A stretch of DNA of 64,000 nt, from the IMG/VR virus record IMGVR_UViG_3300039412_000320; one strand, given 5' to 3'. Within the stretch, counting starts at the first letter, position 1; each line of letters starts with the position of its first letter. The translations under genes and the position numbers were made by a program. Source of the DNA: a virus. A model generated the notes under the pieces. That model saw only the letters and a list, made by a program, of their open reading frames with translations, made no database searches and had not been told where the DNA came from. Below are positions 19,214 to 47,517 of the stretch, piece by piece.

Positions 19214-22200
19214 TCAGAGAGTAGTTGTGACAGTAAACGTCACAGAAATATATAACAAACTAAACATAGGTTTAAACGTCACAGTCACGTCCACCGTAGT
19301 GGGGTCGGTCGGGTCCGGCACCACGGATAGGCTCTTGTATCCACTGATGATTTGGTTATTCACCAAGGAGACCAACCGGGAGTTGCAGACCACCTGAATA
19401 TCCGTGGTCAGTCCGGTGACCAACTTCCTGCCGATGAACTGTGCAAGGTCTGCACGGAACTGCTGAGCCACGTAGTCGGTGACTGTGGTGCAGGTCGGTT
19501 CGGAAGTGATGGGGTTGCTCGGGTCGGTGCTCTTGTAGTGACGCACGTTGAGTGCCCCGTTGTTGTTGGTCAAAACTACCAGACCATTCGATGCCATGAG
19601 GTTCATGGTCGTGTCGTCGTACTGCACGAGCAGGCGGCTGAACCCAACCAAGTTCTGATTGGTGAGGGTGGTCGCCACATCGTTGGCGGGGTTGGCATTG
19701 AGTCCGGCAAGAGCGGCTGCCATGAAGCTGCCGTCCACGGCGTACTCAAGCTGCTGCCCGGTCTGGCTGTTGGTGATGAGAACTCCCGCCGCTGGCATAC
19801 CGATGGCAATCATGCGGGCGTTCTTCAAGGCAACGGCGTTGGCACTTGCTTGGTTGGCGGAGGTGGTAGTGCTGTAGCCGACGAAGCCGATGGCCTCGCC
19901 CTTGTTACGAACGGTTGCCTGCGTGATGAGTTGACGGCTCAAGAACTGGTGAACCGTGGTGCTCACGCTGAGAGGAACGATGACATTCGCCTTCTGGTTG
20001 GTTCCGGGCAGGGCGGTTGTCAAGGTCTGGATGGCGCTGATAAAGTCAGCGTCCGAGGCCACATTGAGACCGGCTTGCTTCGGGACCTGAATGACGCCGA
20101 ACTGCTGTGCGCCGTTCTGAGTCATCAACTGAATACCGAGCGACACCCGGTTGATGGTGCTCGGCTGACCGTAGGCGGCGTAAGCGTCGGACGGGTTGGT
20201 ATAAAGGGTGATTGCCATGTCCGCTGCCGTCTTTTCGGTCTGGAAGCTGACGTAGTAGTACTCACCGATGCTCGGCTGATTGGCGGACGGAGCAAAGGTG
20301 TTGATGATGGCGGTATCCCCGGCGTTGGCACCAAAAGTGGTAATGACTTCGGTGTGGAGACCGGCGATGGCTACCAAGTTGTTCGGCTCCGCCGTGCTGA
20401 AAGGAACGTAAACGGTTCCCGTTACACGGGGGGTTTCGCTGCTGACATCGAATACCAGTGTGTCGCCCGGCTGGAAGTTGTACTGGGGCGTCGGGAGACT
20501 GGTGTATCCGTAGTCAAGGGCATCTTGTGGGTTGACGATGGTGAACTTGAGACCGGTGATTTCGTCAACATACGTCTGGTCAAGGTAGCCCACATTGGTG
20601 CCTACTCCACCGGAACCCGAACCCTTGGGGTTGCTGGAGGTAACGAGGTACCGGAGAGCATAAGGCTCCGGGGAACTGGGGTCCACACCGCCAGCGAGGT
20701 TCAGGGGAGCAGCAGTCTGGATGGTCCCTGCCGTCTTAAGGTTGGCAAGTACCGTTCCAAAGGTGGTGCTGATACCGGAACCGGCGAGGTCGATGACTTG
20801 GCTGGTGGTCGTCACACCGTTGAAGGTGATGGCGTTTCCAACCACGCTGACACCGTAGCTGCCCGTGGTATTGAAAGCGACTGTGATGGCATCTCCACCG
20901 GAACCGGGGGTCGTAGAGAAGAAGAGAATTCCCTGTGCCAAGAGGTATGCCTGTGCGCCCGGATTAGCATCCTTGGTGTATTCATCATTTTGGAACGTCA
21001 AGGTGACAGTCTCATCCACTTCACCCGGAGAATCATAGAGGTCCGGGAAAGCGAAAGGCCACACAATATCTGTCTGATTGAAAGCACCGGATTCGGTGAC
21101 GACACTGTGGACGGCATCAAACGATACCACCGGCAGAATACGTCCTACCTCATCCTTCATCTTATAAGTGCCCTGTCCGGGGATGCCGGGGTTGACCACA
21201 GTGAGTGTGTAGGAGTGGTCATGCAGCGTGTTGCGGTAGTAACTGGCATACACGTTGTTTCCAGCGCCGGGAGCGTTGTAGAGAGTAAAGCTCCCCGTGC
21301 TTCCGGTCAGTTGAATGACCCGCTCGGAAGTGCCGGGATAGTAGTTACCCAGAGCTTCCACGGGGTTGGTGCCGACGAAGACCATGATTTTGACTGGGTT
21401 GTCAGTTACCCTGCCGAGACCGCTGCCATCCACGGGGCTATCGGGCAGTGTGAACGTGAGGTTCTTGCCGTTGGCAACTCCCGTGCAAGTGCGGAGGAAC
21501 ACCTTCTCATCCACGAGGGTGGTGAGAATCTGAGTCGGACCGAAGGGAGTAAAGCCCGTGGTGGAACTTCCCACCAAGGTCTGACTGCCTGCGCCCCAGT
21601 TGATGACCGCATTTCCGACTGAATCCAGACCAAGATTGTAGTCCGTATCTTGGACGAAATCGGCCCGGTTAGGTCCCAAACCAACTTCGATGATGGAGGT
21701 GACATTCTGCGCCGGAATGATGTCATAGGTGTTCTGGTAAGTGTTGGTGTAATAGGTGATGGTGACGGTGGACGGGAAGGCCACGGGATTCTTAACCGTG
21801 ACGAGACCTTCCGCACCGTTAACGGCGGAGACCGTTACGGGGGTGCCGTTCACTGTGACTGTAACCTTGCTGGGGTCAGTAGTGACCACCCCACCGCCGC
21901 TACCGTCTACGATGGGAACATGCTCAACCTTGAAAACAGTGTTGGTGTTGGGTCCTGCACCACCCGAGAGGAAAGTCGGGGAGATGGTTGCAGCCGGGAT
22001 GGGAGGAGATTGGATGGCGGGCTGAGTCGCCGTGAGGTAACCAGCGTCCAAGGTGGGAATTCCCGCCTGCACGAGGTTATAAATGTCCTCAAGGGTACGC
22101 TTGCCGCCGCCGACCTCGGCGATGTCGATACTGATATGGTCCGTACCGGCTCCGCTGACCGCCTGTGTGTCCAGCACGCCGATACCCGGAGGCGAAGACA

Positions 22201-22837
22201 GGGTGTCATCGAAGATGGTGAGACTGACAAGGTTGCCTGTAACGCCGGGGAGCTTGGTGCTGATGACCATGGAGTCGCCGCCCGGAGGACTGGCGATGTT
22301 GTTGTAAATCGTCAGTGTGGCAAAGGAGGGAACTTGGTCCGAGTCATCCTCATTGGTAATGAGGGTATCGGTCCGGGCGAAATAGTAACTGATTTCCACG
22401 TTCTGACCCGGAGTGATGAGTTCTTGAGTGGTGAACTCGCCTGTCTGACCCACGAGGGAGATAACCGTGCCGGGCACGCCGTCGATGGTTATCTGAACCT
22501 GACTGGGGTCATTGGTGACCGTTCCCGCTCCAGTTCCTCCACCTGCCAGACCAACTGCCGCCGCTGTGACCACCGGGAAATAGGTGGTATGGAGGGTATT
22601 GGTGATTGCCGTGACTTGGTTGGAGATATTCTCGTTCACCACCTGCGGGCTAGCGACAGAGGACGAACCACGGAAAAGCTCCACGTTGTCCTGTTCAAAG
22701 AACTCCTGTCCTTCACCGATGATGACCGGGATACGGTTGTTCGTAAAGAGGGGCTGACCCGCTCCAGAAATGATAACCGAGGTGTAAACTCCGGGGGGTG
22801 CATAGCTTCCAAAGAGTGCCATAGTAAGTCTCCTCAA
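19214..22837 (-). CDS. very large (1207 aa) repeat-containing virion structural protein (tail fibre / adhesin-like)
   Basis: Recurrent modules DPSQVQITIDGVPGTVISL / DPSKVTVTVNGTPVTVSAV / DNPVKIMVFVGTNPVEAL; Thr/Gly/Val-rich; no enzymatic motifs seen. Confidence 0.65.
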   Translation of the reverse strand: MRRLTMALFGSYAPPGVYTSVIISGAGQPLFTNNRIPVIIGEGQEFFEQDNVELFRGSSSVASPQVVNENISNQVTAITNTLHTTYFPVVTAAAVGLAGGGTGAGTVTNDPSQVQITIDGVPGTVISLVGQTGEFTTQELITPGQNVEISYYFARTDTLITNEDDSDQVPSFATLTIYNNIASPPGGDSMVISTKLPGVTGNLVSLTIFDDTLSSPPGIGVLDTQAVSGAGTDHISIDIAEVGGGKRTLEDIYNLVQAGIPTLDAGYLTATQPAIQSPPIPAATISPTFLSGGAGPNTNTVFKVEHVPIVDGSGGGVVTTDPSKVTVTVNGTPVTVSAVNGAEGLVTVKNPVAFPSTVTITYYTNTYQNTYDIIPAQNVTSIIEVGLGPNRADFVQDTDYNLGLDSVGNAVINWGAGSQTLVGSSTTGFTPFGPTQILTTLVDEKVFLRTCTGVANGKNLTFTLPDSPVDGSGLGRVTDNPVKIMVFVGTNPVEALGNYYPGTSERVIQLTGSTGSFTLYNAPGAGNNVYASYYRNTLHDHSYTLTVVNPGIPGQGTYKMKDEVGRILPVVSFDAVHSVVTESGAFNQTDIVWPFAFPDLYDSPGEVDETVTLTFQNDEYTKDANPGAQAYLLAQGILFFSTTPGSGGDAITVAFNTTGSYGVSVVGNAITFNGVTTTSQVIDLAGSGISTTFGTVLANLKTAGTIQTAAPLNLAGGVDPSSPEPYALRYLVTSSNPKGSGSGGVGTNVGYLDQTYVDEITGLKFTIVNPQDALDYGYTSLPTPQYNFQPGDTLVFDVSSETPRVTGTVYVPFSTAEPNNLVAIAGLHTEVITTFGANAGDTAIINTFAPSANQPSIGEYYYVSFQTEKTAADMAITLYTNPSDAYAAYGQPSTINRVSLGIQLMTQNGAQQFGVIQVPKQAGLNVASDADFISAIQTLTTALPGTNQKANVIVPLSVSTTVHQFLSRQLITQATVRNKGEAIGFVGYSTTTSANQASANAVALKNARMIAIGMPAAGVLITNSQTGQQLEYAVDGSFMAAALAGLNANPANDVATTLTNQNLVGFSRLLVQYDDTTMNLMASNGLVVLTNNNGALNVRHYKSTDPSNPITSEPTCTTVTDYVAQQFRADLAQFIGRKLVTGLTTDIQVVCNSRLVSLVNNQIISGYKSLSVVPDPTDPTTVDVTVTFKPMFSLLYISVTFTVTTTL

Positions 22838-22934
22838 TTTTCAGCTATTAGGCCGCTGAACGGGCATTTATTTCTTGCTCCTCAACTATGGGGATGAAAG
22901 TCTAATTCTTGCTTCGATTGCAAGAGATAAACCC

Positions 22935-23342
22935 TCATTCCCCCAGAACCTTGGGCTGCGCCGAGGGTGGAATTACCACCTCCCGGAGCTTGGTGCCCGG
23001 CAGGGTACGGTAGCTCTCACTGCTTGTGGCGATGAGGGCCTTTTCCCCCGACTCCTTGCGAACTTTGTCCCTAACTGCTTGGCGCTCATGGATTTTCTCC
23101 CAGCGCTTTTCGGCATCTGCTCCCACCACCACATCAAAAGTGGGATTTGACATATTGTCTGTCTTGAGGCCCGGCGCACCCTTAAGCTGGTAGACGCATT
23201 TTCCTTTACAGTTGGGTCGGATGCAGGGGCGGTCTTCAAAAGTGGCCTTGTTCATGGGCATGAGTTCTTCAACAAGGACTCCGCAGGTATCACAGCGGAA
23301 GGCGTATATAGCCATAGTTAGATTTCCTCTTTTTCTTTCCAC
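22935..23342 (-). CDS. FmdB-family-like zinc-ribbon protein
   Basis: N-terminus MAIYAFRCDTCGVLVEEL...RPCIRPNCKGK matches MPxYEYxCxxCGxxFE pattern. Confidence 0.5.
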   Translation of the reverse strand: MERKRGNLTMAIYAFRCDTCGVLVEELMPMNKATFEDRPCIRPNCKGKCVYQLKGAPGLKTDNMSNPTFDVVVGADAEKRWEKIHERQAVRDKVRKESGEKALIATSSESYRTLPGTKLREVVIPPSAQPKVLGE

Positions 23343-23785
23343 TCTGCCACGTATCTAATAAAAGCTTCCAAAGGTCCGGGATTGTTTTCTAAACGACCCA
23401 ATATGACATTGCAAGAAGTGCAAAGAAGCCCTCGATTGTTTTTAGTCTTGTGATTATGGTCCACACACAACCTTCGTTTGGCACGACATGCTGTGGGGGG
23501 TCTTTTACAGATTGCACACACACCACCTTGCTTTTCAAATTGAGCAGCGTATTCCTCTTGAGTCATTTTGTACCGATATTTAATAAGCCAACAACCCGGA
23601 AGATTCTCAGTTCTTTTCTTAAACAACTCATTTCTTCTTGTTGGACTTGTGGTAGCCATGATTCGAGAGTTCCTACATCTTCTACATACGTGTCTACGAC
23701 CAACCGTATCTCCATTACGGAATAGTTGAAATTCCTCCTCAGACTTAGGGGTATTACATTTTCGGCACTGTATGAGTTCCGCCAT
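23318..23785 (-). CDS. HNH / endonuclease VII-like nuclease
   Basis: CRKCN...CRRCR ribbon; CAICKRP...CVDHNHKTKNNRGLLCTSCNVILG core; paralog-like to 18749..19201. Confidence 0.75.
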   Translation of the reverse strand: MAELIQCRKCNTPKSEEEFQLFRNGDTVGRRHVCRRCRNSRIMATTSPTRRNELFKKRTENLPGCWLIKYRYKMTQEEYAAQFEKQGGVCAICKRPPTACRAKRRLCVDHNHKTKNNRGLLCTSCNVILGRLENNPGPLEAFIRYVAEWKEKEEI

Positions 23786-23827
23786 GGTGTATCAATATAG
23801 ATTGCCATAGTCTATTTTCTAGTTCGA

Positions 23828-24784
23828 TTGACTTTCCGTTTCTTTAGGCAGGAGAGCCAGATGGAGACACTTAATCAAGGGAAAACACTGGGACCGGGGG
23901 ACCTTAGTATCCTTGTCCGGGATTCCAAAGGACGGATGGTTGACCCCGTGTCAATCTCCTATTCAATATTTCAGATAACGGAAAAGATCCCCGAAGTGGG
24001 GCAGCGGGCATATGAGTATGATGCCGAGCAACCAAACCACATGGGGCGGCTGCCCGAAGATAGCCTCATTCTTTCCACTGAACCCCGGATGTGCCCTCGC
24101 CGGGCCTCCGTGGGGGCTTACTGGGTCAACATGACCATACCCACCCTGTGGCGGGGAATCTTCCGGCTGGTCTGGTATCTTATCCAATATGAAGGAGAGC
24201 CGGAAACACGGGTCTATGAGGATTTCGTCGTTCAGCCCATCGACCCGGCTGATTCCGCCTTCGAGGCTCCCTCTGTCATTATTACACCGCATCCCCTGAC
24301 CAAGAATAAGTACACACCGGCCATTATGGCAGTCCGGGAACTCATCAGCGATACCAACCCAGACCGCAACTACCACTTCCGTCCACCGACGCCGGGGAAG
24401 GTGGTTGCCGGGTACACCACTCGTGTAGGGTATATCTGGCTTGACTCCACTATACTAAGGATGCTTGACATTAACATTAGCAAGTTGAACACGTGGAACC
24501 CTAAGAACTTGACGAATTACAGCCTTGAGAACCTTCCAAAGGATTGGGGAAATTGTGCAGCAGTGGGTGCGGCGGCATCCTGTTTGTCCGCTGAGGGCGC
24601 ACGTTGGGCGGCTGATGAGTTCAGCTACAGCTTGAATGGGGTAAGCTTGGACATCAACAAGTCCAGTCTTTACCTAAGTTTATCCCAAAGCTATGGTCAG
24701 GAGTTCCAAGAATGGGCACCCCTGATTACCGCTATCCGGCCTTACAGTGCAGGATTAAGACAACAGCGTTGGCTCCTCGGATAG
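23828..24784 (+). CDS. hypothetical protein (318 aa), first gene of plus-strand block
   Basis: ORF in track; divergent from minus-strand block at about 23800. Confidence 0.5.
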   Translation: MTFRFFRQESQMETLNQGKTLGPGDLSILVRDSKGRMVDPVSISYSIFQITEKIPEVGQRAYEYDAEQPNHMGRLPEDSLILSTEPRMCPRRASVGAYWVNMTIPTLWRGIFRLVWYLIQYEGEPETRVYEDFVVQPIDPADSAFEAPSVIITPHPLTKNKYTPAIMAVRELISDTNPDRNYHFRPPTPGKVVAGYTTRVGYIWLDSTILRMLDINISKLNTWNPKNLTNYSLENLPKDWGNCAAVGAAASCLSAEGARWAADEFSYSLNGVSLDINKSSLYLSLSQSYGQEFQEWAPLITAIRPYSAGLRQQRWLLG

Positions 24785-24826
24785 AAAAACAACTTTCTCG
24801 GTATTTATATGAGGGGGTTGTGTATG

Positions 24827-25531
24827 TTCATCTATCTGATTGTCAACCACGAGACTGGGAAGTACTATGTCGGTCAGCATAAGGGGAACAACCTAAAAAA
24901 ATACCTACAGCAGAAGTTTCATCACGCTCAAAAGGGAATCTCCAGTCGTTCCCGTCTTTATAACTCCATGCGTAAGCATCCCCTTCCCTCTTCTTGGTCC
25001 ATACACGCCCTCCGGGCCGACATCCAAACAAAATCCGAATTAGACGAGACGGAGCGGGACTTCATCAAATTTCTTAGGGCAACTGACCCTGAATATGGCT
25101 ACAACATATGCCGGAGAGGGGAGGGGTTCACGGGGCCGCACGGACCTGCGGCGAGAGCCAAGGTGACCGAAGCTCTGAAACAAAGATGGGCGCAACCGAA
25201 CTTCCGGGAACACTGGAGTGAGATTATGAAAGGGCATCCTACATCACAAGAGACTATCGACAAGATTAAGGCTGCCCGTGTCTTGCAGGACGAAGCACCA
25301 CGGGCCGAAGGCTGTAGGAAGTATGCGGCAGAGCACCCCAAAGAAATGTCAGCACGCCTGTCCCACGAGGCCCACATACTGGGGGGCAGGGCTGGAACAC
25401 GGGAAGCCAAGCAAAGGGCCGCCAAAATCAGCATTGAAAGAAACAGCCGTAGGAAAGCCCAACATGTTCGCTGGCATGTCAACCGAGGGTTGATTAACCC
25501 AGAATGTTTACTTTGTAAACCATCTTTGTAG
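24827..25531 (+). CDS. GIY-YIG homing endonuclease (MFIYLIVNH paralog family, copy 1)
   Basis: MFIYLIVNHETGKYYVGQHKGNNLKKYLQQK...GYNICRRGEGFTGP; start moved to Met shared with paralogs at 27676 and 60615. Confidence 0.85.
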   Translation, partial: FIYLIVNHETGKYYVGQHKGNNLKKYLQQKFHHAQKGISSRSRLYNSMRKHPLPSSWSIHALRADIQTKSELDETERDFIKFLRATDPEYGYNICRRGEGFTGPHGPAARAKVTEALKQRWAQPNFREHWSEIMKGHPTSQETIDKIKAARVLQDEAPRAEGCRKYAAEHPKEMSARLSHEAHILGGRAGTREAKQRAAKISIERNSRRKAQHVRWHVNRGLINPECLLCKPSL

Positions 25532-25538
25532 GAGGAAT

Positions 25539-25721
25539 ATGCTCCATATCCTCGGAGATAACGGTGATAACCCTCAGATATCAATGACGGGGCGGCCGGA
25601 CGGGACTTGGCGCATCATTATCACGGGCGTGAAAGACGCTCTCATCCTACCCAGTGGGCAAGACTTCTGCCCTGATTCGGATGAGCCGGTAAAATGCCCT
25701 TATTGTAAGAAACCGAGGTAG
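25539..25721 (+). CDS. small hypothetical protein (60 aa)
   Basis: ORF in track; C-terminal CPYCKKPR. Confidence 0.3.
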   Translation: MLHILGDNGDNPQISMTGRPDGTWRIIITGVKDALILPSGQDFCPDSDEPVKCPYCKKPR

Positions 25722-25724
25722 GAC

Positions 25725-26327
25725 TTGAAGCGAATCATCTTTCTTCGTCATCCTCAGACGGCCTACAACATGGAGCCAATTCGGCTCCGGGGGGCGCTTG
25801 ACATCCCTCTGTCCCCGGCTGGATTCGCTCAGATACCACTGATAGTTGAAAAATTAAGGGGTCAATACTGCTGCATCAAACAGGTGTATTCCAGCCCATT
25901 GGAGCGGGCTTCCATATTGGCAACCACTGTAGCCCATGAGTATGGGTTAAAGGTAGATAAACTAGACGGCCTCAAAAGCCGAGACTACGGCATTATGAAT
26001 GGCAAACCTGTAGATGAAGTAAAGGATGTACTGGGAATCCTTGCTACGGGAGCGGGCCGGGATTTGTTCCCCAAGGGTGGGGAATCCATGAACACTTTCC
26101 TCGAAAAGTTGATAGAAGCCATTAAGCAAATCATTTATCAAGCTCCCGAGGATGGGGAGGTTCTAGTCTGCACTCACCTCCAGAACATCATGCTGGGGAC
26201 GAAGTGGTTATTCAATGGATTGCCGGAAATATCCGACTTCACATTCACTTACAGTGAGGCGAATGAAATACCACCGGGTGAGTGGATAGAGGTGAAAAGG
26301 GATTGGGTGGTGGTGAAGAATGATTAG
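25725..26327 (+). CDS. histidine phosphatase superfamily (phosphoglycerate-mutase-like) protein; TTG start in track
   Basis: FLRHPQTAYN near N-terminus matches the RHG phosphohistidine motif; about 200 aa as in SixA/PGAM-like enzymes. Confidence 0.6.
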   Translation: MKRIIFLRHPQTAYNMEPIRLRGALDIPLSPAGFAQIPLIVEKLRGQYCCIKQVYSSPLERASILATTVAHEYGLKVDKLDGLKSRDYGIMNGKPVDEVKDVLGILATGAGRDLFPKGGESMNTFLEKLIEAIKQIIYQAPEDGEVLVCTHLQNIMLGTKWLFNGLPEISDFTFTYSEANEIPPGEWIEVKRDWVVVKND

Positions 26328-27630
26328 CGAATTACTGGTCATCAATTCGAGTTATGTTGGCAGCCGGGACCTGTGGTGGGTGGACGACCCCGAGGCAACG
26401 AGGGGCTATAATATCTACCGGGCCTACGACCATCCAAGCAATTGGAAAAAGCTCAATAAGGGAACATGGCGGGGACACTTCTGGAGAGACCAAGCTTACC
26501 TTGAAAAGGTGGAGTTCATTGTACGCCCGCAGGACTGGGTAGAACAGGGAGAGTTGGGCCGCTGGGGTTTCAAGCTCCCAGAGATCCCCTATTCCAACAT
26601 TGTGGCGACTCGTCCCATGGTAGCCAACAACCCTGATGACATAAAGATTGTCCTCACCGACATGTTTAACAATAAGAGTGAGATACGTCCCACAGAGGTA
26701 CGGGCACTAGACCAGACCGTCTGGTTCCCTATGGACAACACTCTTGCCAAGGGTGGAGCGGTGTCGGATACAGCGGTGGTTTCCACGGATAACGTCGTCG
26801 TCGCCAACTATGCTGGCATTCAGGAAGTAAAGGCATTTTTCAAGAGGCTAGCCAACTACGTGGACATCTACACCTCGCTGGCACGGCAATTCTACACGGT
26901 AGTAGGGGTGGGTGATGGCGGAGAAATCCACAAGCCCGGAGCACCAGCCGCTCCCGTTGTGAATACCCAAGAAGTAGACCAGATTACTTGGGAATACAAA
27001 GAAATGGTAAACCGCAACCACTGGGTTTTTGAACAGGTGGGCGAACCCGCTTATATAATGTTTCGCCGGACCCGTGGAGAACCTTGCGGCTGCGTGCGCC
27101 CCGAGGCGGGAATGGGTACTCCCCGTCACGGATGCAAAGTTTGCTTTGAAACCGGGGTCGTCGGAGGTTACTACGGTCCCTATGACTTTCTCTACGTCCC
27201 CCCTGACACGGCGCTTGTCCGTGAACTGGACGAAGGCGGGGGTATCAAAGCGACCCGTGAATCGAAAAGTTACCTGACCAATACCCCCATTGTACAGGAT
27301 GGTGACCTCATCATTCGCCGGACTGGGGAACGTCTGGTCATTCACGGCGTCACTTACAAACAACCGAGAGGCATACTCCTCCAACAGGACTTCGGCGTTC
27401 AATTACTGACCGAGGGTGACACCCGTTATCTCATTCCCATCAACACCGGCCTGCCGACACTTTACAACCCCATCTATCGGGATAACCCGGACCAAGGCAT
27501 CGACCCGCTCCACCTTAAGGGTGATGGAGAACCTATCGTGAATATCCGGGAGCAACCGGATAAGCCTTTCGAGAACACTATTGAACCCCCGGTAGGGAGG
27601 ACCGTCACGTTTGGGAGGATACAAAATTAG
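26320..27630 (+). CDS. hypothetical protein (436 aa)
   Basis: ORF in track; no motif recognised. Confidence 0.55.
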   Translation: MISELLVINSSYVGSRDLWWVDDPEATRGYNIYRAYDHPSNWKKLNKGTWRGHFWRDQAYLEKVEFIVRPQDWVEQGELGRWGFKLPEIPYSNIVATRPMVANNPDDIKIVLTDMFNNKSEIRPTEVRALDQTVWFPMDNTLAKGGAVSDTAVVSTDNVVVANYAGIQEVKAFFKRLANYVDIYTSLARQFYTVVGVGDGGEIHKPGAPAAPVVNTQEVDQITWEYKEMVNRNHWVFEQVGEPAYIMFRRTRGEPCGCVRPEAGMGTPRHGCKVCFETGVVGGYYGPYDFLYVPPDTALVRELDEGGGIKATRESKSYLTNTPIVQDGDLIIRRTGERLVIHGVTYKQPRGILLQQDFGVQLLTEGDTRYLIPINTGLPTLYNPIYRDNPDQGIDPLHLKGDGEPIVNIREQPDKPFENTIEPPVGRTVTFGRIQN

Positions 27631-27675
27631 AAAGTAAAAAACGAACTTTCCAAAGCACTTATAGGAGGAAGGTTC

Positions 27676-28554
27676 ATGTTCATTTATCTTATTGTCAATC
27701 ACGAAACCGGGAAGTACTACGTTGGACAGCACAAAGGGGATAACCTTAAAGCCTACTTGCAGCGTAAATTTTCCGCCGCAAAACACAATGAGGGTAAGGG
27801 GGGTTCTTATTTATTCGCCTCTATGCGTAAACATCCCCTTTCCTCCTCTTGGTCCATTCATGCCCTTCGTTCGGATATCCAAACAAAAGAAGAGCTTAAC
27901 GAAACCGAGAGGGATTTTATCAAATTTCTGCGGTCACAAGACCCCGAGTATGGGTACAACATTTGTAAGGGTGGGGAAGGACATACAGGACCGTTATCTC
28001 AAGAAACTCGTCAAAAAATATCTACTCACCACAAACAAATGTGGACTAACCCTGAAATAAAACAACATTTCTTAACACAAATGATAGTGGGGCATAGGAA
28101 TAGTTCATCGTGGCATACCCCGGAAGGTCTTGAAAAAATTAAACAGGCAATTGCTGGATTAAAACGCACGCCTGAGACATGTAATAAAATACGGATTAAA
28201 CGTCTGCTACAGCCAGACCCCCGGCGTGGGAAACATCATTCAGAGAAAACGAAAAAACGTATTAGCGAGGTCAAAAAAGGTACCCCAAGTTCCTTCCGTG
28301 GAAAACACCATAGTGATGAGTCAAAAGAGAAAAACCGAAAAGCCCATTTAATAAATCTGCAAGGACAAGATTTTGGAAACGTAATTCCCATGTCTTTAGT
28401 AGCGTCTAATCCCCAATCCAAGTGGGCGGTTAAATGCATTGTTTGCGGGTCCGAGGGAATAGTGAGGGGGGATAGAATCAGAAGTGGTGATTCCGCTTTC
28501 ATGAGAGCACACTCTGGGATACATGAAGTCTCGAATAGGGGGATACAAAACTAA
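27676..28554 (+). CDS. GIY-YIG homing endonuclease (MFIYLIVNH paralog family, copy 2)
   Basis: MFIYLIVNHETGKYYVGQHKGDNLKAYLQRK...GYNICKGGEGHTGP; NUMOD3-like C-terminal modules; stop overlaps next start (TAATG). Confidence 0.85.
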   Translation: MFIYLIVNHETGKYYVGQHKGDNLKAYLQRKFSAAKHNEGKGGSYLFASMRKHPLSSSWSIHALRSDIQTKEELNETERDFIKFLRSQDPEYGYNICKGGEGHTGPLSQETRQKISTHHKQMWTNPEIKQHFLTQMIVGHRNSSSWHTPEGLEKIKQAIAGLKRTPETCNKIRIKRLLQPDPRRGKHHSEKTKKRISEVKKGTPSSFRGKHHSDESKEKNRKAHLINLQGQDFGNVIPMSLVASNPQSKWAVKCIVCGSEGIVRGDRIRSGDSAFMRAHSGIHEVSNRGIQN

Positions 28555-30281
28555 TGTACCTCTACCATTGCACCTCCACTGACCGAGTAGTAAGCATCCA
28601 GCATAAAGGGCTACAGCCTTCAATGGACCCACATTGGGGAGGAGACTTGGGAGATACTTCTCTGGGTAAAGTGTTCTTTGCTGATAACCCCCAGCACGCC
28701 TACTATTACGGTGAGATTGTCTTTCGTGACACCTTACAGTTAGAGGGAGCAGCGGGCGCTCCCATCCTGTTAAGAGTAAGAAACCTCCAAGGTATGGTAC
28801 AGGACAAGCAAGATACCCACTCATTCTATGCCGAGAGGGTAATTCCCCCGCAAACCATTGAGATAATGTGGCATGGGTGGAAACCTATAAAGAGCGCCGG
28901 GGGATATTGGGATGAGATGGAGTACCGCCTCAATGACGATGAGAACGTTTATGAAGACTGGGAAGGTACCCCATTCGACAGTATAGAGGAAGTCTTGGCG
29001 GATGCCAAGGCGTCCATTCTAGCACCGGCTAAATCTGGAACTCTTAAAAGAGGGGACCGTATGCCAGATAAGACCAAACCCACTGTATGTTTTGTCCGCC
29101 ACGGGCACACCCCCTATAACTCCTCTACCGGGGATTCCATGGATAGCCGCATCCGGGGATTCACCAATGTGCCCTTAGATGAGATTGGAAAACAACAGGC
29201 AGGGAAAACGGCCAAAAAATTTAAGGGTATGGATATAAAGGAGATATACTCCTCCGACCTTGACCGTGCCGCTTATACAGCAAATGAAATAAAGAAGGTC
29301 ACGGGGGCTAAACTCTACCTCATCCCCAACTTACGACCGTGGGACCTCGGAGATTGGGCTGGAGATACGGTCCGAGAACATATTGAGGAACTCGAACTCC
29401 TCCAGAAAAATATCGACCAAGCCGCTCCCGGAGGCAAGCCCTTCCGGGAGTTCTATGACCGGGCGGTCAGCATTGTCAAGTGGCTACAGGAGAGAGCCAT
29501 AAAGCTTAACGGGAGGATAGTTGCTGTCACTCACTCCCGGTTTTTGAACTCCCTGCCCTGCATCATTTCCGAGGGTGACCCTACTACCGTACCTCTGGCT
29601 GGGGGAGCCGCCACTGGGCAAGTCATTGAAATTGAAAAGGTTGACGGAAATTGGGCTATGCGAACCCTTGATGACGAGATTCAAGAAGTGGAAGAACAGA
29701 AGGCAAAATCCAAAGAAGGCGACTATACAAGCCATAAGAGAGGAACGCCCATGGGAATTTCTACGAAAGCAAGCGATTTGGCGGCATTGGTATCAAAAAC
29801 CGCCCAAGTATTGTGCGAGGGGGACCACCCCAACGCCGATTCCGACCTACAAGCCATGGTGGGCGACCCCACGGATGTCCGTACTTCCACCTTTGCCCAG
29901 TTCCACCCCAATCCGGGGACCATGCAGCTTCCCAATCCTCTCAGCCCTATCGAGGGAGACGAGATTTTCTTCGCCTATATGCTGCCGGGGGCCGTATTCC
30001 AAGCTCATGATGGCAGCGAGTGGAACATCCTGTTTTATGACGGGGCCGACTCCATTCAGATTGAGAACCGCTGGTACCCAAGGATTTCATGGTTTGTGTC
30101 CATCGGAGATATCCGGCGCAGCATTCACCAGTGGATTGAACCCATCACTCAGACCGTTCCGCCTCCGCCGCCCGGCGTCGATTACAGCGCCCTGCCGGTC
30201 AAGGTCATGGACAAGGAAGACAACATCGGAAGTGCTGATGCACTGACCGATGACAAGGTCAGCGGCGGAAGTAGCTGGTAA
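28554..30281 (+). CDS. multidomain protein: N-terminal region resembling the NAD+-binding lobe of KptA/Tpt1 (tentative), central histidine phosphatase domain, unknown C-terminal domain
   Basis: TVCFVRHGHTPYN (RHG motif) at about aa 180-192; N-terminus MYLYHCTSTDRVVSIQHKGL resembles KptA FLYHGTASRFLDEIKKQGL. Confidence 0.55.
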   Translation: MYLYHCTSTDRVVSIQHKGLQPSMDPHWGGDLGDTSLGKVFFADNPQHAYYYGEIVFRDTLQLEGAAGAPILLRVRNLQGMVQDKQDTHSFYAERVIPPQTIEIMWHGWKPIKSAGGYWDEMEYRLNDDENVYEDWEGTPFDSIEEVLADAKASILAPAKSGTLKRGDRMPDKTKPTVCFVRHGHTPYNSSTGDSMDSRIRGFTNVPLDEIGKQQAGKTAKKFKGMDIKEIYSSDLDRAAYTANEIKKVTGAKLYLIPNLRPWDLGDWAGDTVREHIEELELLQKNIDQAAPGGKPFREFYDRAVSIVKWLQERAIKLNGRIVAVTHSRFLNSLPCIISEGDPTTVPLAGGAATGQVIEIEKVDGNWAMRTLDDEIQEVEEQKAKSKEGDYTSHKRGTPMGISTKASDLAALVSKTAQVLCEGDHPNADSDLQAMVGDPTDVRTSTFAQFHPNPGTMQLPNPLSPIEGDEIFFAYMLPGAVFQAHDGSEWNILFYDGADSIQIENRWYPRISWFVSIGDIRRSIHQWIEPITQTVPPPPPGVDYSALPVKVMDKEDNIGSADALTDDKVSGGSSW

Positions 30282-30318
30282 ATTTTGGCGGAGAGTCAGT
30301 GAAACAGTAGGAGGAAAC

Positions 30319-30543
30319 ATGGTAATCACCTCAGCAGTAGTCGGTTTGGCAATCAGCCACGTCGTAGCCATCGTCGTTGGATGGTGGGCAAAGGCCAAGG
30401 CCGTAGCCACGGCAGAAGCCGCCAAGGTTAAGCCGGAAGCCGAGAAGGTTCTCGCCGCAGTCAAGGCAGAACTTGCCAAGGCAGAAGCCGTTGCCGAGAC
30501 GGATGCGAAAAAGGTTATCGCCGCCATCAAAGCAAAGCTGTAA
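30319..30543 (+). CDS. small membrane protein, holin-like (TM helix plus Ala/Lys-rich amphipathic tail)
   Basis: MVITSAVVGLAISHVVAIVVGWWAKAKAVATAEAAKVKPEAEKV...; AGGAGG 6 nt upstream of ATG 30319. Confidence 0.4.
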   Translation: MVITSAVVGLAISHVVAIVVGWWAKAKAVATAEAAKVKPEAEKVLAAVKAELAKAEAVAETDAKKVIAAIKAKL

Positions 30544-30566
30544 CCAACCGGGGGTTCCCGCCTATC

Positions 30567-30590
30567 ATGCCTGTTCAGTGGCTTGGTAAC
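30567..30590 (+). terminator. 7-bp hairpin (gttcagt-ggcttggta-actgaac) after holin-like gene; possible weak terminator or regulatory hairpin
   Basis: Perfect inverted repeat seen in sequence; no clear U-tract. Confidence 0.25.
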
Positions 30591-30625
30591 TGAAACGCCT
30601 ATCGAGTTCTTTGTAGGGAGCATTT

Positions 30626-32299
30626 ATGCTTGACTTGACGGGCGGGAATCTCGTCGCTTATCTCCGCAGAGTTATCGAAGACGCCGTAAACCGGTCCCCC
30701 CGGTTCCGGTACACCCTTGGAGAAGTCTCTTCTCAGTACAACAACCTCATTCAATGGAAGGACGCTCAAATCAGCATCAAGAACGTCACCTCCACCGGCA
30801 ACCGCCTCTCTCCTGACTACTTCATGTGCAAGAACTACGGGCGGGCAATTCTTGCCAAAATCCAGAGCAAAGAGGGGGGATTCATTGAGTGGGTGCAAGA
30901 GGTGGATTCCACCCGGCAGACGCCCGCAGCCGGGGTATACTATTTCAATGTGGATGAGGTCAATGAGCAGACACGGGACGTAGACCTAACCATCCAGAAA
31001 TACACATGGCAAGAGGGTAAGGTTGTCAACGCCCAAGGCTCCATCGTCTACTTCGCCCCCCAAATTGACGGCACTACGGTCTCAGGGTATGTCTCAGGCA
31101 GGGGAAGCCCCCCAACGCCTCTGGAAACGGCTGTAAACGACGGCACGTGGCAAACTACGCTCGTTTCTCCTCCTGTGCCGGTAGATTTGCTCCTCGCCCC
31201 GCATTTTGGCTATTTGCTGACCGATACCCCAGCCGGGTTGGTCCTCTTCGCCGGGTCCCCACCCGTCCAGCTTACTCCCCTGTTGGATTACTGGTATCAA
31301 CAGACCGTCCAGCAAGTGGTATGCCAAAGTACCGTGGGAGGACAAGAAGTCGTTGGCATTCCGCTGGGCCTTGTGGACGTTCCGGGAGGCGGAAGCCCGC
31401 CGCAGATGGTTCAGACCCTCCTCTCCTTCACGCTTACGGACCAGAACGGCTACGAACTTATCAAAGGGAAGGATTACACCTACTTTGCCAGCAATGATTG
31501 GCTGGAACTCTCTCCGTACACGCCGCCCGGAATGACCATTACGGCAAACATGGTCGTTAAGGTTGACCCCACGGGCGTACCGGGGACCAACCCGGAGAAT
31601 ATCCTACAGACGCAAGTGACGGAGGGAAACAGTCTAGCACCGGGGCAGGTATTCGTACAGACCTCTCTCGGAAACTACACGTCACTCGTACCCAATACGG
31701 ATGGGACTTGTACCTTGCCCACTCTTCTCTTGCCGGGGGAATGGTGCCGCTGGGAAGTTCGAGTAGATACAGGAAGAACAAAGGCCCGAGCCAAAAAGTA
31801 CAACCTCAATGAGAATGTCCTCCCCGGCCTGCGGATAGCTATCGGTGACAACGTTCTCAAGGATGACCAAGTGGCTATCATCGTGCAGCCCTACACCGCC
31901 GAGACCTATGAGGTATACGGGAGCAAGGAGAACCTGACCTTCACCGTGGACTGCCGGGCAAATGACCTCCAGACCGCCTCCGACCTCAGCGAGTTGCTCC
32001 GCCGAGAGCTTCTCATCATGCGCCGGACGAATATGGAGGCAGACGGCATCACCTTGTTTGAAGCCAGCCGGTCGTATGTGGGATTGCAGCGTGACCTCAG
32101 CGGCACCGCTCCACAGTTTGTCTACAGTCTGACTGTTTCCGCTATGGCAGATTGGAAAGTGTTTGTACCACTGGTCACCCGGCTGGTCACCTTGGAAATA
32201 ACCAGCACCGCCACGGTGTCATCCTACGGTCCGGGTATATCGCTTACGCCCCGAGTCAAAGTGTTTGGCAACACCAAGTTCTTAGAATCTTACACGTAA
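30626..32299 (+). CDS. hypothetical protein (557 aa), possibly virion/baseplate
   Basis: ORF in track; last gene of plus block, convergent with minus genes at about 32300-32470. Confidence 0.55.
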   Translation: MLDLTGGNLVAYLRRVIEDAVNRSPRFRYTLGEVSSQYNNLIQWKDAQISIKNVTSTGNRLSPDYFMCKNYGRAILAKIQSKEGGFIEWVQEVDSTRQTPAAGVYYFNVDEVNEQTRDVDLTIQKYTWQEGKVVNAQGSIVYFAPQIDGTTVSGYVSGRGSPPTPLETAVNDGTWQTTLVSPPVPVDLLLAPHFGYLLTDTPAGLVLFAGSPPVQLTPLLDYWYQQTVQQVVCQSTVGGQEVVGIPLGLVDVPGGGSPPQMVQTLLSFTLTDQNGYELIKGKDYTYFASNDWLELSPYTPPGMTITANMVVKVDPTGVPGTNPENILQTQVTEGNSLAPGQVFVQTSLGNYTSLVPNTDGTCTLPTLLLPGEWCRWEVRVDTGRTKARAKKYNLNENVLPGLRIAIGDNVLKDDQVAIIVQPYTAETYEVYGSKENLTFTVDCRANDLQTASDLSELLRRELLIMRRTNMEADGITLFEASRSYVGLQRDLSGTAPQFVYSLTVSAMADWKVFVPLVTRLVTLEITSTATVSSYGPGISLTPRVKVFGNTKFLESYT

Positions 32300-32469
32300 C
32301 CGGTCAATCTTCAATTCCATCCGCCCGTTCGCCGGTATTGACAATGACCTGTACCAGCCTCATTTCTTCGACCACTCCCACCGCAAGTTACTGCCGTCGT
32401 ATTTCTCAAAAGCGAGGCAGGGACTCCCGAGGGGAGCATGGGCTGACCCGGCGATTTCGGGGTAGTGTT

Positions 32470-32667
32470 TCATGCGTATATACCGCAGTACTCTGCGTCA
32501 GGATGCTCTTTGCAATATGGGCATGGGTCCACATGTATGCGGCTCAAGACCCGTGCGTAATACTCAATGTAAGGCTCCTCGTATCTTCCCGTCATGGGGC
32601 GACCGCACTTTGCACAATACATGTCAACTTCTAAAGAGATGGTCCCCGCACTGCTCGTAATAGTCAT
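32470..32667 (-). CDS. small Cys-rich zinc-binding protein
   Basis: MYCAKCGRPMTG...PCPYCKEHPDAEYCG; start moved to internal Met to avoid overlap with AAA gene. Confidence 0.4.
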   Translation of the reverse strand: MTITSSAGTISLEVDMYCAKCGRPMTGRYEEPYIEYYARVLSRIHVDPCPYCKEHPDAEYCGIYA

Positions 32668-32674
32668 ACTACCC

Positions 32675-47368: not shown

Positions 47369-47517
47369 CCTATAGTTGCGTAATCCGGCTCCCGCTGACC
47401 ATCACCCTCATGAATCTTAACGTCGGAAGGTAGGTAGCTCAAGAGCGACCGGCATTCCGTACATTCGACTTCCTTTGGTTCCGATTTAGGCGGAGCCTTA
47501 AGCACCCTGATTGCCAT
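47302..47517 (-). CDS. small zinc-ribbon protein (71 aa)
   Basis: CTECRS...CPTCGG pair of CxxC. Confidence 0.4.
   Translation of the reverse strand: MAIRVLKAPPKSEPKEVECTECRSLLSYLPSDVKIHEGDGQREPDYATIGCPTCGGSVTVPMVKAWELRRR

Follow-up and report, generated by a model that had tools for sequence, protein, structure and literature searches.

The locus analysed here raises the question of what a 575-residue open reading frame, g575, does in a soil jumbo phage where it is surrounded by myovirus morphogenesis genes. The window, by which we mean the whole 64,000-nucleotide stretch analysed (IMG/VR virus record IMGVR_UViG_3300039412_000320), had been predicted to hold tandem units of a GIY-YIG gene and a histidine-phosphatase gene, the second phosphatase being fused to an NAD-binding fragment and possibly acting against host defence. 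The genes concerned, with the neighbouring sheath gene, are the following.

19214..22837, minus strand: g1207, tail-sheath orthologue given for context (44% identity to Tunturi_5 gp326, 'tail sheath')
23828..24784, plus strand: g318, orthologue of Tunturi_5 gp319 (annotated 'head-tail connector protein'), which opens the plus-strand block
24809/24824-25531, plus strand: GIY1, GIY-YIG homing-endonuclease-like gene (PHROG 314 'homing endonuclease' at 9e-17)
25539..25721, plus strand: g60, small open reading frame with no function assigned, kept in the related locus L001
25725..26327, plus strand: HP200, stand-alone branch-1 histidine phosphatase of 200 aa with the motif 'RHPQTAYN'
26320..27630, plus strand: g436, orthologue of Tunturi_5 gp322 (annotated 'minor tail protein')
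27676..28554, plus strand: GIY2, 292 aa, GIY-YIG and NUMOD3 homing-endonuclease-like gene (PHROG 314 at 7e-23)
28554-30281, plus strand: g575, 575-aa open reading frame with the motif 'RHGHTPYN'
30626..32299, plus strand: g557, orthologue of Tunturi_5 gp324 (annotated 'tail terminator'), which closes the block

The gene order is identical across four independent metagenome assemblies, which excludes an assembly artefact. Within the block g318 shares 51% identity with L002:2350-3198 and 67-77% with its orthologues in L001, L003 and L006 (Pfam and PHROG searches with g318 gave no match), g436 shares 50% with L002:7580-8827 and 62-77% with its orthologues in L001, L003, L005 and L006, and g557 shares 40% with L002:9413-10996 and has a weak Pfam match to Phage_tail_terminator_6 (E = 0.009). 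The small g60 is 50% identical to L001:5279-5416 and gene calls in independent assemblies include it too. Some g436 orthologues contain an intein-like insert. The order of connector-like gene, g436-like gene, C-terminal module of g575 and terminator-like gene is constant in Tunturi_5, L003, L006 and L007, and in Tunturi_5, L006 and L007 the sheath gene follows on the same strand; the g1207 orthologues of L006 and L007 match Phage_sheath_1C. The structural labels of Tunturi_5 stem from structure-based annotation (Phold, PMC11924767), not from proteomics.

The predicted 575-residue protein with a Tpt1/KptA-like N-terminus and a histidine phosphatase is indeed present, and it is a fusion of three modules.

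28554..29048, plus strand: residues 1-165, complete minimal ADP-ribosyltransferase (ART) fold domain, with the NAD+ lobe of Tpt1/KptA as nearest solved relative
29079..29678, plus strand: residues 176-375, branch-1 histidine phosphatase (HP) domain with R182, H183, N189, R238, D264 and H327
29781..30281, plus strand: residues 410-575 and the stop codon, conserved C-terminal module (C-module)

The C-terminal third had been overlooked, and it is the conserved core of the protein and its apparent virion module. With 68-98% identity among homologues it is the best conserved part of g575, and it has 112 homologues, most of them stand-alone and 150-180 aa long, on contigs of up to 894 kb. Over 100 contigs of related jumbo phages have the orthologue as a separate gene of ~172 aa, located between the orthologues of the Tunturi_5 'minor tail protein' and 'tail terminator' genes; its Tunturi_5 counterpart gp323 is 49% identical to the C-module. 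In the structural model a small SH3/Tudor-like barrel is confident and the flanking conserved arms are of low confidence, as would be expected if the protein took on a fixed structure only as part of an assembly. Among the g575 homologues we find the architectures ART+HP+C, HP+C, ART+HP+ART-like+C and another domain with C. Four of the ten homologues have HP and C but no ART domain, and the N-terminus of P0010 is unrelated. In one sub-lineage the conserved C-module protein gained the phosphatase, and part of this sub-lineage gained the ART domain on top of it. The fusion to this structural-block protein is recurrent and stable over homologues at 46-93% identity.

The N-terminus of g575 reads YLYHCTSTDRVVSIQHKGL, and its domain is modelled by AlphaFold2 with a pLDDT of 94.2. 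Across the first 27 residues the profile of its family matches Tpt1 chains with E = 6e-4. The PTS_2-RNA model gave no match to g575 and reached E <= 1 in only 2 of 54 family members. As g575 begins at the first beta-strand of the ART fold there is no space for the RNA lobe of Tpt1, and without this lobe the protein is not a Tpt1. Of the proposed KptA/Tpt1-like NAD-binding fragment the fold and the kinship to Tpt1/KptA hold, but we reject the notion of a fragment: the domain is a complete ART domain of ~160 residues and belongs to a separate family. The Tpt1 tetrad is Arg-His-Arg-Arg, not Arg-His-Arg-His as had been assumed, and most of it is located in the RNA lobe, which g575 lacks. The family has a signature of its own (WGG, S-x-G-K-V-F-F, A-x-Y-Y, L-L-R and W109). 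The beta-1 histidine H5 is invariant (54/54 sequences) and the basic residues K39 and R74 are nearly so. At position 94, 20 of the 54 sequences have E and 4 have D, and the 93%-identical P0001 has T there; with no conserved third catalytic residue the domain may be a binder, not a transferase. Its 287 representatives are either stand-alone or lie within giant phage 'polyvalent' effector proteins, many of them in proteins of one to four thousand residues which combine ART-PolyVal, SprT, GNAT, InPase, RelA_SpoT and DUF4116.

Histidine-phosphatase domains had been proposed for both open reading frames, and the matches to His_Phos_1 (gathering score 21.7) bear this out: 1.5e-24 and 87.1 bits for HP200, which also matches PHROG 12933 at 1e-14, and 8.3e-32 and 110.9 bits for residues 178-373 of g575. 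The candidate catalytic residues of HP200, read from its sequence, are R8, H9, N15, R61, D86 and H151, and it has 'RHP' where the canonical motif is 'RHG'. Its 50 homologue clusters are nearly all ~200 aa long and none is fused to another domain. The best solved relative of the g575 domain is PhoE (1h2e, 1.5e-09). HP200, encoded separately in the same block, is a distant paralogue of this domain with 28% identity. Neither phosphatase reached a specific NCBIfam equivalog, the best being CobC with 66-68 bits, where the cutoff is 162.9.

Could the enzyme folds be catalytically dead and serve to decorate the neck or tail structurally, or to bind the host surface? Many C-module homologues of 220-307 aa have variable N-terminal extensions without a Pfam match, as expected of exchangeable decoration, and the 'RHP' of HP200 departs from the canonical motif. 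But the six catalytic residues listed above for the HP domain, the canonical set, are kept in every g575 homologue with this domain, and the invariant H5 speaks against dead domains too. The retention of active-site residues across homologues at 46-93% identity argues for selection on catalysis, and we consider inert domains very improbable.

A metabolic role would be served if both phosphatases were cytoplasmic auxiliary enzymes, for example PhoE-like, that scavenge phosphate or rewire metabolism in phosphorus-poor soil; the C-module would then not be a virion component, the ART-like domain would be a regulatory NAD- or ADP-ribose (ADPR)-binding domain, and both the fusion and the encoding among late genes would be incidental. 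The annotation of homologues at source as 'broad specificity phosphatase PhoE', the structural kinship to PhoE, the always stand-alone HP200 of ~200 aa and the varying third ART catalytic residue all fit. What does not fit is that the most conserved protein of the structural block carries the fusion recurrently and stably, and that the ART family has its other contexts in polyvalent effector proteins and not in metabolic operons. Moreover, in Tunturi_5 the same slot is occupied by gp321, which is encoded between the connector-like gene and the g436-like gene, combines SprT, 2H, ART-PolyVal (6e-48) and GNAT and is a true polyvalent protein hosted by this block. A purely metabolic role is quite unlikely on these grounds.

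The proximity of NAD+ salvage genes, which begin 3.4 kb downstream of g575, had been taken as a hint at NAD+-related function.

33691-35187, minus strand: NAMPT/NadV gene, context (NAPRTase 2.2e-49, NAMPT_N 2.4e-31)
35099-36040, minus strand: NMNAT-Nudix gene, NadM-like, context (NUDIX 4.9e-10 and CTP_transf_like; NCBIfam models of bifunctional NMNAT/Nudix match below cutoff)

The two genes are present as described. A NAMPT gene and a Nudix-domain gene are also nearby in L001, L003 and L005, and L006, whose locus lacks both the fusion and HP200, has NAMPT near the block. As the neighbourhood is kept even in a relative without the fusion, the distance of about 3 kb reflects inherited synteny and is no evidence of a functional link. 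This bears on the idea of a coupled pathway, in which the ART-like domain would use NAD+ to generate or capture a phosphorylated form of ADP-ribose, for instance ADPR-1''-phosphate, Appr>p or an immune signal, and the phosphatase would dephosphorylate it, together with NAD+ salvage as an anti-defence enzyme. In its favour, Tpt1, the nearest structural relative, releases ADP-ribose 1''-2'' cyclic phosphate (PMC9503650), some phages overcome RES-type NAD+ depletion with ADPR-1''-phosphate phosphatases (bioRxiv 10.64898/2026.01.28.702374), two relatives of the N-terminal domain (P0132 and P0150) are fused to InPase, another phosphoesterase, and the salvage pair is encoded close by. Against it, the ART domain is optional among homologues that keep HP and C, which makes an obligatory reaction chain from ART to phosphatase unlikely, and NAMPT accompanies the block in L006 without the fusion or HP200 at the locus. 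In g575 both the RNA lobe and the tetrad of Tpt1 are missing, and no specific equivalog fits the phosphatases. The known ADPR-1''-phosphate phosphatase, Adpp, has a Macro domain and belongs with NARP1, while the NAMPT/NMNAT route of this phage needs no ADPR. We regard such coupling as unlikely.

Nor do the two phosphatases belong to duplicated units with the GIY-YIG genes. Both GIY proteins begin MFIYLIVNHETGKYYVGQHKG, but the near-identity that had been reported is confined to the first ~24 residues; over 176 residues they are only 58% identical, with 74-78% DNA identity in two short blocks. With the phosphatases at 28% and endonuclease copies elsewhere in relatives (paralogues of GIY2 come after HP+C in L001 and, in L005, behind the terminator-like gene) a tandem duplication is not borne out. 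GIY2 matches NUMOD3 (6.5e-08, 32.8 bits, gathering score 20.4), and the Pfam GIY-YIG scores are just under the gathering score of 22.6 (19.9 bits for GIY1, 16.4 for the other GIY-YIG protein). GIY1 has 235 aa from the ATG at 24824, a start also chosen by other gene callers. Its orthologues hold the same position in L001, L003, L006 and L007 while the flanking proteins have diverged to ~57-67% identity, which marks it as a long-term resident. GIY2 sits exactly at the junction of g436 and g575; in L003 this junction is free of GIY2 and the two genes are 3 nt apart. A duplication of 26 nt flanks GIY2.

27604..27629, plus strand: first copy, at the 3' end of g436, with a GGAGG-like ribosome-binding stretch
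28528..28553, plus strand: second copy, at the 3' end of GIY2, directly before the ATG of g575

The copies (repeat family D4, 77% identity) were aligned with the endonuclease-free junction of L003 and show that GIY2 was inserted precisely between g436 and g575, duplicating 26 nt of the junction. Both GIY genes are selfish homing-endonuclease-like genes, hitch-hikers unrelated to the fusion.

We favour, at about an even chance, a reading of the ART and HP domains as effector cargo tethered to a protein of the virion module, which would be a variant of a strategy already known from phages. The C-module would be built into the virion or an assembly intermediate and would thereby carry both enzymes as pre-made cargo, a logic shared with ARTs fused to MuF or portal domains and with polyvalent proteins. 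At the onset of infection the ART domain might use host NAD+ to ADP-ribosylate a target, plausibly a phosphate-bearing or nucleic-acid one because of the Tpt1-like kinship, the missing conserved catalytic Glu and the near-invariant K39 and R74. Independently, the HP domain might strip a phosphomonoester from a host protein or a nucleotide-type molecule. The effector pedigree of the ART family, the C-module as core, the polyvalent gp321 in the same block, the modularity and the conserved catalytic residues support anchored cargo, and there is precedent in ARTs that are packaged as fusions to virion proteins, which is frequent, above all in myoviruses (PMC9503650). On the other side, the probable place of the C-module in the virion rests on the Phold structure-based labels, and the ART domain could be a binder. 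Neck and tail-completion proteins normally remain extracellular, leaving an anchored enzyme no obvious route to cytoplasmic substrates; access would need release or a protein lining the DNA channel. A word search of the Aravind-lab surveys PMC5512222 and PMC9503650 did not turn up a histidine phosphatase among the polyvalent or packaged domains.

Several known systems invite comparison. The GIY genes share an N-terminal GIY-YIG domain with a NUMOD3 motif, intergenic insertion, presence/absence polymorphism among relatives and a short junction duplication with the free-standing SegA-E/PHROG 314 endonucleases; they differ in their sub-gathering Pfam scores and in the long residence of GIY1.

Adpp (bioRxiv 10.64898/2026.01.28.702374) is a phage phosphatase in the NAD+/ADPR arms race and has the very function of the original prediction. 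It is, however, a Macro-domain ADPR-1''-phosphate phosphatase with a fold unrelated to histidine phosphatases, and it occurs in extended NARP1 operons, in contrast to the NAMPT and NMNAT/Nudix genes (NARP2-type route) of this phage; no sequence or context link to it was found.

With PhoE (1h2e) and the alpha-ribazole phosphatase CobC (TIGR03162) the phage HP domains share the RHG-type histidine, two Arg, Asn and the second His, but they score far under every NCBIfam equivalog cutoff. At the usual general-acid site 'R-E-x-x-x-G' the alignments, as we read them, show R-P-W-D-L-G and S-R-D-Y-G in the phage proteins, and an invariant Asp follows two residues further downstream.

Tpt1/KptA (PTS_2-RNA; PDB 9ld3, 7yw2, 6e3a) has the ART-fold NAD+ lobe in common with the g575 N-terminal domain, whose opening aligns residue for residue with the motif [FY]-L-Y-H-x-T ... 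I ... G-L-x-P. In both, a strictly conserved catalytic Glu is missing. Unlike Tpt1/KptA, g575 has a family signature of its own and no N-terminal RNA-binding lobe; as it starts at beta-1, the Arg-His-Arg-Arg tetrad, going by its general location, cannot be present. The ART clade containing KptA has been named H-H-h (PMC9503650).

The polyvalent proteins and virion-fused ARTs (Iyer et al. 2017, PMC5512222; Iyer et al. 2022, PMC9503650), of which T4 Alt is the classical packaged example, differ from g575 in that g575 has only three modules and probable, not established, packaging, and in that its anchor is a small protein of the connector/tail-terminator block and not MuF or portal. Like them, g575 unites several unrelated enzyme modules in one polypeptide, joins them to a putatively virion-associated module and is encoded among myovirus morphogenesis genes, and its N-terminal family occurs within polyvalent proteins beside ART-PolyVal, SprT, GNAT, InPase and RelA_SpoT.

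The gene of the 575-aa protein g575 belongs to a + strand gene block that spans 23828-32299 of the window, and the protein is composed of an N-terminal ART-fold domain (N-domain, residues 1-165), a histidine phosphatase (HP) domain (residues 176-375) and a C-terminal module (C-module, residues 410-575).

Genes of the + strand block, and the NAD+ salvage genes downstream of it
23828-24784, +, g318, 318 aa
24824-25531, +, GIY1, GIY-YIG homing-endonuclease-like gene, 235 aa
25539-25721, +, g60, 60 aa
25725-26327, +, HP200, stand-alone histidine phosphatase gene, 200 aa
26320-27630, +, g436, 436 aa
27676-28554, +, GIY2, GIY-YIG homing-endonuclease-like gene, 292 aa
28554-30281, +, g575, 575 aa
30250-30543, +, small ORF, 97 aa
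30626-32299, +, g557, 557 aa
33691-35187, -, NAMPT, downstream of the block
35099-36040, -, NMNAT/Nudix gene, downstream of the block

This gene order recurs in four independent metagenome assemblies, and we therefore conclude that the arrangement is real. Near-identical DNA was not found among 50,697 deposited phage records; the sole cultured phage that has the C-module in common, at the protein level, is Tunturi_5. Since the relatives of the window are found on contigs of 340-890 kb and the window contains a cluster of seven tRNA genes, it stems from an uncultured jumbo phage. The tRNA cluster (54749-56747, - strand) comprises Gln-ttg (two copies), Thr-tgt, Thr-ggt, Thr-cgt and Ile-gat (two copies), and two of these predictions are unusually long (86-88 nt). 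A scan of 23300-32800 gave 18 terminator-like sites (10.8 +/- 3.3 expected), which is somewhat above chance, with no convincing operon boundary among them, and only the chance-expected number of promoter-like sites. For the comparison across relatives seven loci were inspected, one of which (L002) is Tunturi_5.

According to the original prediction the block contains tandem units of a GIY-YIG gene and a phosphatase gene. We reject a recent tandem duplication of such units, since GIY1 and GIY2 are 58% identical across 176 residues with DNA identity (74-78%) in two short repeat blocks only, since HP200 shares only 28% identity with the phosphatase domain in g575, and since the endonuclease positions vary in the relatives. 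L001, a relative of 342 kb, carries its HP200 orthologue (56% identity) in inverted orientation beside an Endonuclease VII-type gene, and a GIY paralogue there comes after, not before, the gene in which a phosphatase is fused to the C-module. In L003 the g575 orthologue follows the g436 orthologue after a gap of 3 nt without an endonuclease between them, and in L005, a locus without HP200, the GIY paralogue is placed after the terminator-like gene. Because of the low identities and the differing positions in the relatives, the endonucleases and the phosphatases have independent histories and alternate here by chance.

The GIY-YIG genes are independent and mobile. Their Pfam GIY-YIG scores (19.9 bits for GIY1 and 16.4 bits for GIY2) lie under the gathering score of 22.6, both match PHROG 314 'homing endonuclease' (9e-17 and 7e-23, respectively), the motif residues (GIY..YxG, Arg, Glu and Asn) can be made out in the sequence, and GIY2 carries a NUMOD3 motif. 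Mobility is seen for GIY2, which is missing from the g436/g575 junction of L003 and whose paralogues in L001 and L005 sit elsewhere. At this junction the 3' end of g436 (27604-27629) and the 3' end of GIY2 (28528-28553) form an imperfect 26-nt duplication (77% identity), the duplicate keeping a purine-rich, ribosome-binding-like stretch ahead of the g575 start codon; this duplication is the footprint of the insertion of the endonuclease gene. GIY1 stays after the g318 orthologue in L001, L003, L006 and L007 and is an old resident at its position. The region is altogether unusually rich in homing-endonuclease-like genes: Endonuclease VII/HNH-type ORFs are located at 18749-19201 (- strand, 9.7e-22) and 23318-23785 (- strand, 2.6e-20), and a NUMOD3-containing ORF (36037-36954, - strand) adjoins the NMNAT/Nudix gene.

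Searched alone against Pfam, g575 gave a sub-threshold PARP match at its N-terminus (E = 0.057, residues 1-53 to profile positions 50-100). A profile built from six full-length g575 homologues retrieved 287 relatives of the N-domain at E <= 0.001 from 1.84 billion representative proteins, 28 of them at E <= 1e-30. About half of the relatives listed are stand-alone proteins of 150-200 aa, and the others sit within proteins of 1,000-4,000 residues together with ART-PolyVal, SprT-like, GNAT, InPase, RelA_SpoT and DUF4116 domains. The N-domain region or sister copies of it in these large proteins match PARP, PTS_2-RNA (Tpt1/KptA) and DUF7002, in some cases above the gathering score (e.g., P0134 with PARP at 34.1 bits at the position of the N-domain). 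Pfam contains no dedicated model for the family; among its 54 aligned members there are sub-threshold contacts to DUF7002 (13 members), PARP (11) and PTS_2-RNA (2).

With the family alignment as input, AlphaFold2 gave a model of the N-domain with a mean pLDDT of 94.2 and a pTM of 0.88, which has the split beta-sheet NAD+-binding core of the ART fold. The resemblance of the N-terminus to the NAD+ lobe of Tpt1/KptA that had been predicted was upheld in so far as Tpt1 is the nearest solved relative of this ART-fold domain: in a PDB search the 54-sequence profile picks up Tpt1 chains with E = 6e-4 over the first 27 residues (profile consensus eekylYHaTladnlpsIakkGLlPsee) and DarT at E = 0.7. Further solved relatives, after the nearest, are an Rhs toxin, the pertussis and heat-labile toxins, DarT, Scabin, PARPs, Arr and RES toxins.

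The N-domain is, however, not a Tpt1. Tpt1 is built from two lobes, of which the N-terminal one binds RNA and the second, with the ART fold, is the NAD+ lobe. In the model as well as in the alignments residues 2-8 of g575 form ART beta-strand 1, and because the protein begins at this strand the RNA-binding lobe is absent; the matches of the N-domain reach only the Tpt1 residues from about 90 on. The ORF 5' of g575 is a homing endonuclease, and in L003 it is the g436 orthologue. Three of the four Tpt1 tetrad residues are located in the RNA-binding N-lobe, and the catalytic Arg-His-Arg-Arg tetrad is not present in the N-domain, the K-R that follows G-L-x-P in Tpt1 (9ld3) being replaced by S-x-D-P-x-W-G-G in the N-domain family. 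PTS_2-RNA (gathering score 26 bits) does not match g575 even at E <= 10 and matches only two of the 54 family members at E <= 1. The multi-domain relative P0136 scores 30.9 bits with this model, in a region distinct from its N-domain copy.

Within the 54 family sequences the beta-1 His (H5) is invariant, position 41 is mostly aromatic (F in 39 sequences, Y in nine), and Y52 is found in 51; the N-domain hence has the beta-1 His and the beta-2 aromatic residue of the H-Y/H-... clades of ARTs. The family signature reads Y4, H5, T7, G19-L20, P22, W28-G-G and S36-x-G-K-V-F-F in its first half and A49-x-Y-Y52, P70-x-x-L-R74 (R in 51/54) and W109 in its second half. The H-Y-[EDQ] clade has a third catalytic residue, E, D or Q, on beta-5. 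At the respective position 94 there is a Glu in g575, E in 20/54 and D in 4/54 family members, and T in P0001, which is 93% identical to g575. This pattern would be compatible with an H-H-h-like clade or with a loss of transferase activity. We also considered that homologues lacking the N-domain encode it as a separate upstream gene. For L001 and L005 this could be dismissed, as tblastn and the family HMM applied to all six-frame ORFs found no copy within about 10 kb on either side; a 184-aa ORF upstream in L005 is unrelated to the N-domain.

Both phosphatases are recognized by Pfam PF00300 His_Phos_1 (gathering score 21.7), with 110.9 bits (8.3e-32) for residues 178-373 of g575 and 87.1 bits (1.5e-24) for HP200. 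As far as can be judged from the sequences, the catalytic cores, i.e., the nucleophilic His of the RHG motif, two Arg, an Asn and the second His, are intact. The core residues of g575 (R182, H183, N189, R238 and H327) are kept in every homologue with the domain, and their equivalents in HP200, read from the sequence and a pairwise alignment, are R8, H9, N15, R61 and H151; HP200 carries RHP where RHG is canonical. The general acid of branch-1 histidine phosphatases is usually the Glu following the conserved Arg of an 'RE' motif. In our reading of the alignment the corresponding position of PhoE is occupied by Pro or Ser-Arg in the two phage proteins, by Pro in the case of g575 (LRPWDLG versus LREIHLG in PhoE), and two residues downstream there is an invariant Asp (D264 in g575, D86 in HP200). 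The broad-specificity phosphatase PhoE is the best solved relative (1.5e-09). Among the NCBIfam models CobC alpha-ribazole phosphatase (TIGR03162) matches best; its scores of 66.0 and 67.7 bits are far under the cutoff of 162.9, and we therefore rejected this identity and transferred no specific function. HP200 homologues form 50 clusters, which apparently all derive from this phage clade; nearly all have a length of about 200 aa, and no fusion with a further domain occurs among them.

Only ten homologues of g575 were found in 5.8 billion clusters, with the following architectures:
ART+HP+C, 574-592 aa
HP+C, 398-421 aa
ART+HP+second ART-like insert+C, P0004
unrelated N-terminus+C, P0010

In P0004 (677 aa) the second ART-like insert (KFYHVTERTDAKDILKNGF...GYGVYLYDD) separates the phosphatase from the C-module. 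In P0006 (577 aa) the C-terminal part of the phosphatase precedes the N-terminal part, a permutation or a mis-assembly.

The part common to the homologues, and the most conserved one, is residues 410-575 (68-98% identity, compared with 52-93% for the HP and 46-93% for the ART domain). A search with the C-module alone gave 112 homologues, mostly stand-alone proteins of 150-180 aa on contigs of up to 894 kb, and a Pfam scan of the longer ones (249-332 aa) revealed no other fused enzymes. The C-terminal third of g575 is thus a conserved stand-alone gene of a connector / tail-terminator block, to which the HP and ART domains were added in a modular fashion. AlphaFold2 is confident solely for a small SH3/Tudor-like barrel within the C-module; the highly conserved flanks, with the stretches VGDPxDxRTSTFAQFKPNPGTMQLPNPLSPIEGDE and VPPPPPGVDY, are of low confidence, which we take as typical of a subunit that would be ordered only within an assembly. 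Fold searches with the C-module returned no named fold.

The order of this block in the relatives is a connector-like gene (~310 aa), a GIY-YIG gene, a g436-like gene, the C-module (159-176 aa) and a terminator-like gene (526-632 aa), followed by a Zn-ribbon gene, the sheath gene (~1,200 aa, with Phage_sheath_1C matches) and a small tube-sized ORF. L006 and L007 keep the full order. In Tunturi_5, the only cultured member, the GIY-YIG gene is replaced by the gene of the polyvalent gp321. The gene names in Tunturi_5 come from structure-based annotation rather than proteomics (PMC11924767).

Tunturi_5 counterparts of genes in the window (identity by tblastn)
g318: gp319, head-tail connector, 51%
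g436: gp322, minor tail protein, 50%
g575 C-module: gp323, hypothetical protein, 49%
g557: gp324, tail terminator, 40%
g1207: gp326, tail sheath, 44%

The gene of gp321 (L002:3482-7570; PP885688.1 261501-265589) is annotated as 'MutT/NUDIX hydrolase'. By Pfam the protein contains SprT-like, 2H/Acb1-like phosphoesterase, ART-PolyVal (6e-48), GNAT and DUF3990 domains and is a textbook polyvalent protein. Its gene separates the connector-like gene from the g436 orthologue and thereby takes the slot that GIY1, g60 and HP200 fill in the window. A - strand island with Ku and a ligase-like gene (L003:5474-8583) lies in this variable slot too, between the HP200 and g436 orthologues.

Several further observations were made at these loci. 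The g436 orthologues L001:7488-9938, L005:7002-9419 and L007:5433-7787 are 784-816 aa long owing to a middle insert of ~360 residues, which has a LAGLIDADG_3 match in L001 and, lying within a conserved structural gene, resembles an intein. The L001 orthologue (1,588 aa) of a UvrD-type helicase of the window (41108-43909, - strand) has a Hom_end (intein) match as well. In the window, L001 and L003 the Zn-ribbon and sheath genes (19214-23342 in the window) precede the connector-like gene and are encoded on the opposite strand; in Tunturi_5, L006 and L007 they come after the terminator-like gene on the same strand. The block has thus been inverted, and specifically so in the sub-lineage in which HP200 is found as well. 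A GmrSD_N-domain protein (47498-48433, - strand, 4.4e-18) resembles Tunturi_5 gp317, which is reported there as 'DefenseFinder protein'.

The gene order and the annotation of Tunturi_5 by structure prediction suggest that the C-module could anchor the ART and HP enzymes in the virus particle and that the anchored enzymes would act as independent early effectors. We regard the chances of this reading as about evenly balanced.

The original prediction had drawn on the closeness of the NAD+ salvage genes and suggested that the fusion could be a coupled enzyme that processes an ADPR-phosphate. NAMPT and a Nudix-domain gene (an orthologue of the NMNAT/Nudix gene by tblastn) are near the block in L001, L003 and L005. 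NAMPT is also near the block in L006, where the C-module stands alone and HP200 is missing from the locus. The closeness is therefore inherited genome organisation, is not specific to the g575 fusion and is lost as a functional cue. A phage phosphatase acting on ADPR-1''-phosphate, Adpp, has recently been described (bioRxiv 10.64898/2026.01.28.702374), but it is a Macro-domain enzyme of NARP1 operons, whereas the window phage has the NAMPT/NMNAT route. Our literature searches gave no relevant paper linking phage histidine phosphatases to NAD/ADPR or to anti-defence. A coupled enzyme seems rather unlikely to us, and less likely than anchored, independent effectors. Both the endonuclease-phosphatase 'units' and the closeness to NAD+ salvage are explained by selfish-element insertion and inherited synteny and are not functional evidence. 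The NAMPT gene is directly adjoined by an AAA+ ATPase gene (32675-33691, - strand; AAA 7.9e-12, PHROG 2376), an orthologue of which (63% identity) is near the NAD+ salvage genes in L005.

A more far-reaching version would have the two domains act one after the other, as an NAD+-dependent 'phosphate eraser' delivered with the virion. The Tpt1-like ART domain, performing Tpt1 chemistry minus the RNA lobe, would modify the phosphate of a nucleic-acid end or of a phosphorylated ADPR-type or nucleotide immune signal, leaving the phosphatase to resolve or recycle the ADP-ribosylated product. We consider this to be a long shot; if true, it would be a new class of pre-packaged anti-defence enzyme that is active before phage gene expression.

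Returning to the anchored, independent effectors, the natural series of C-module alone, HP+C, ART+HP+C and ART+HP+ART-like+C offers ready constructs for determining the contribution of each module. If the fusion is packaged, the connector / tail-terminator block would contribute, with one of its small conserved proteins, a new anchor that extends the principle of packaged and polyvalent effectors, in a large clade of soil jumbo phages that is almost uncultured. The histidine phosphatase would be a new type of cargo, and the N-domain would represent a Tpt1-like ART family in compact, well-folded form (165 residues, pLDDT 94). According to the Aravind-lab surveys (PMC9503650), ARTs are the commonest macromolecule-modifying domains of polyvalent proteins; they are enriched in myoviruses, where they are often joined to head or portal proteins, and their genes lie among those for morphogenesis. 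With ART and HP, g575 combines two unrelated effector domains, and its ART family recurs together with ART-PolyVal, SprT, GNAT, InPase and RelA_SpoT of the shared polyvalent repertoire. Compared with the known polyvalent and packaged effectors g575 shares the theme and differs by its new anchor and by the phosphatase as extra cargo; it is a variant of a known strategy.
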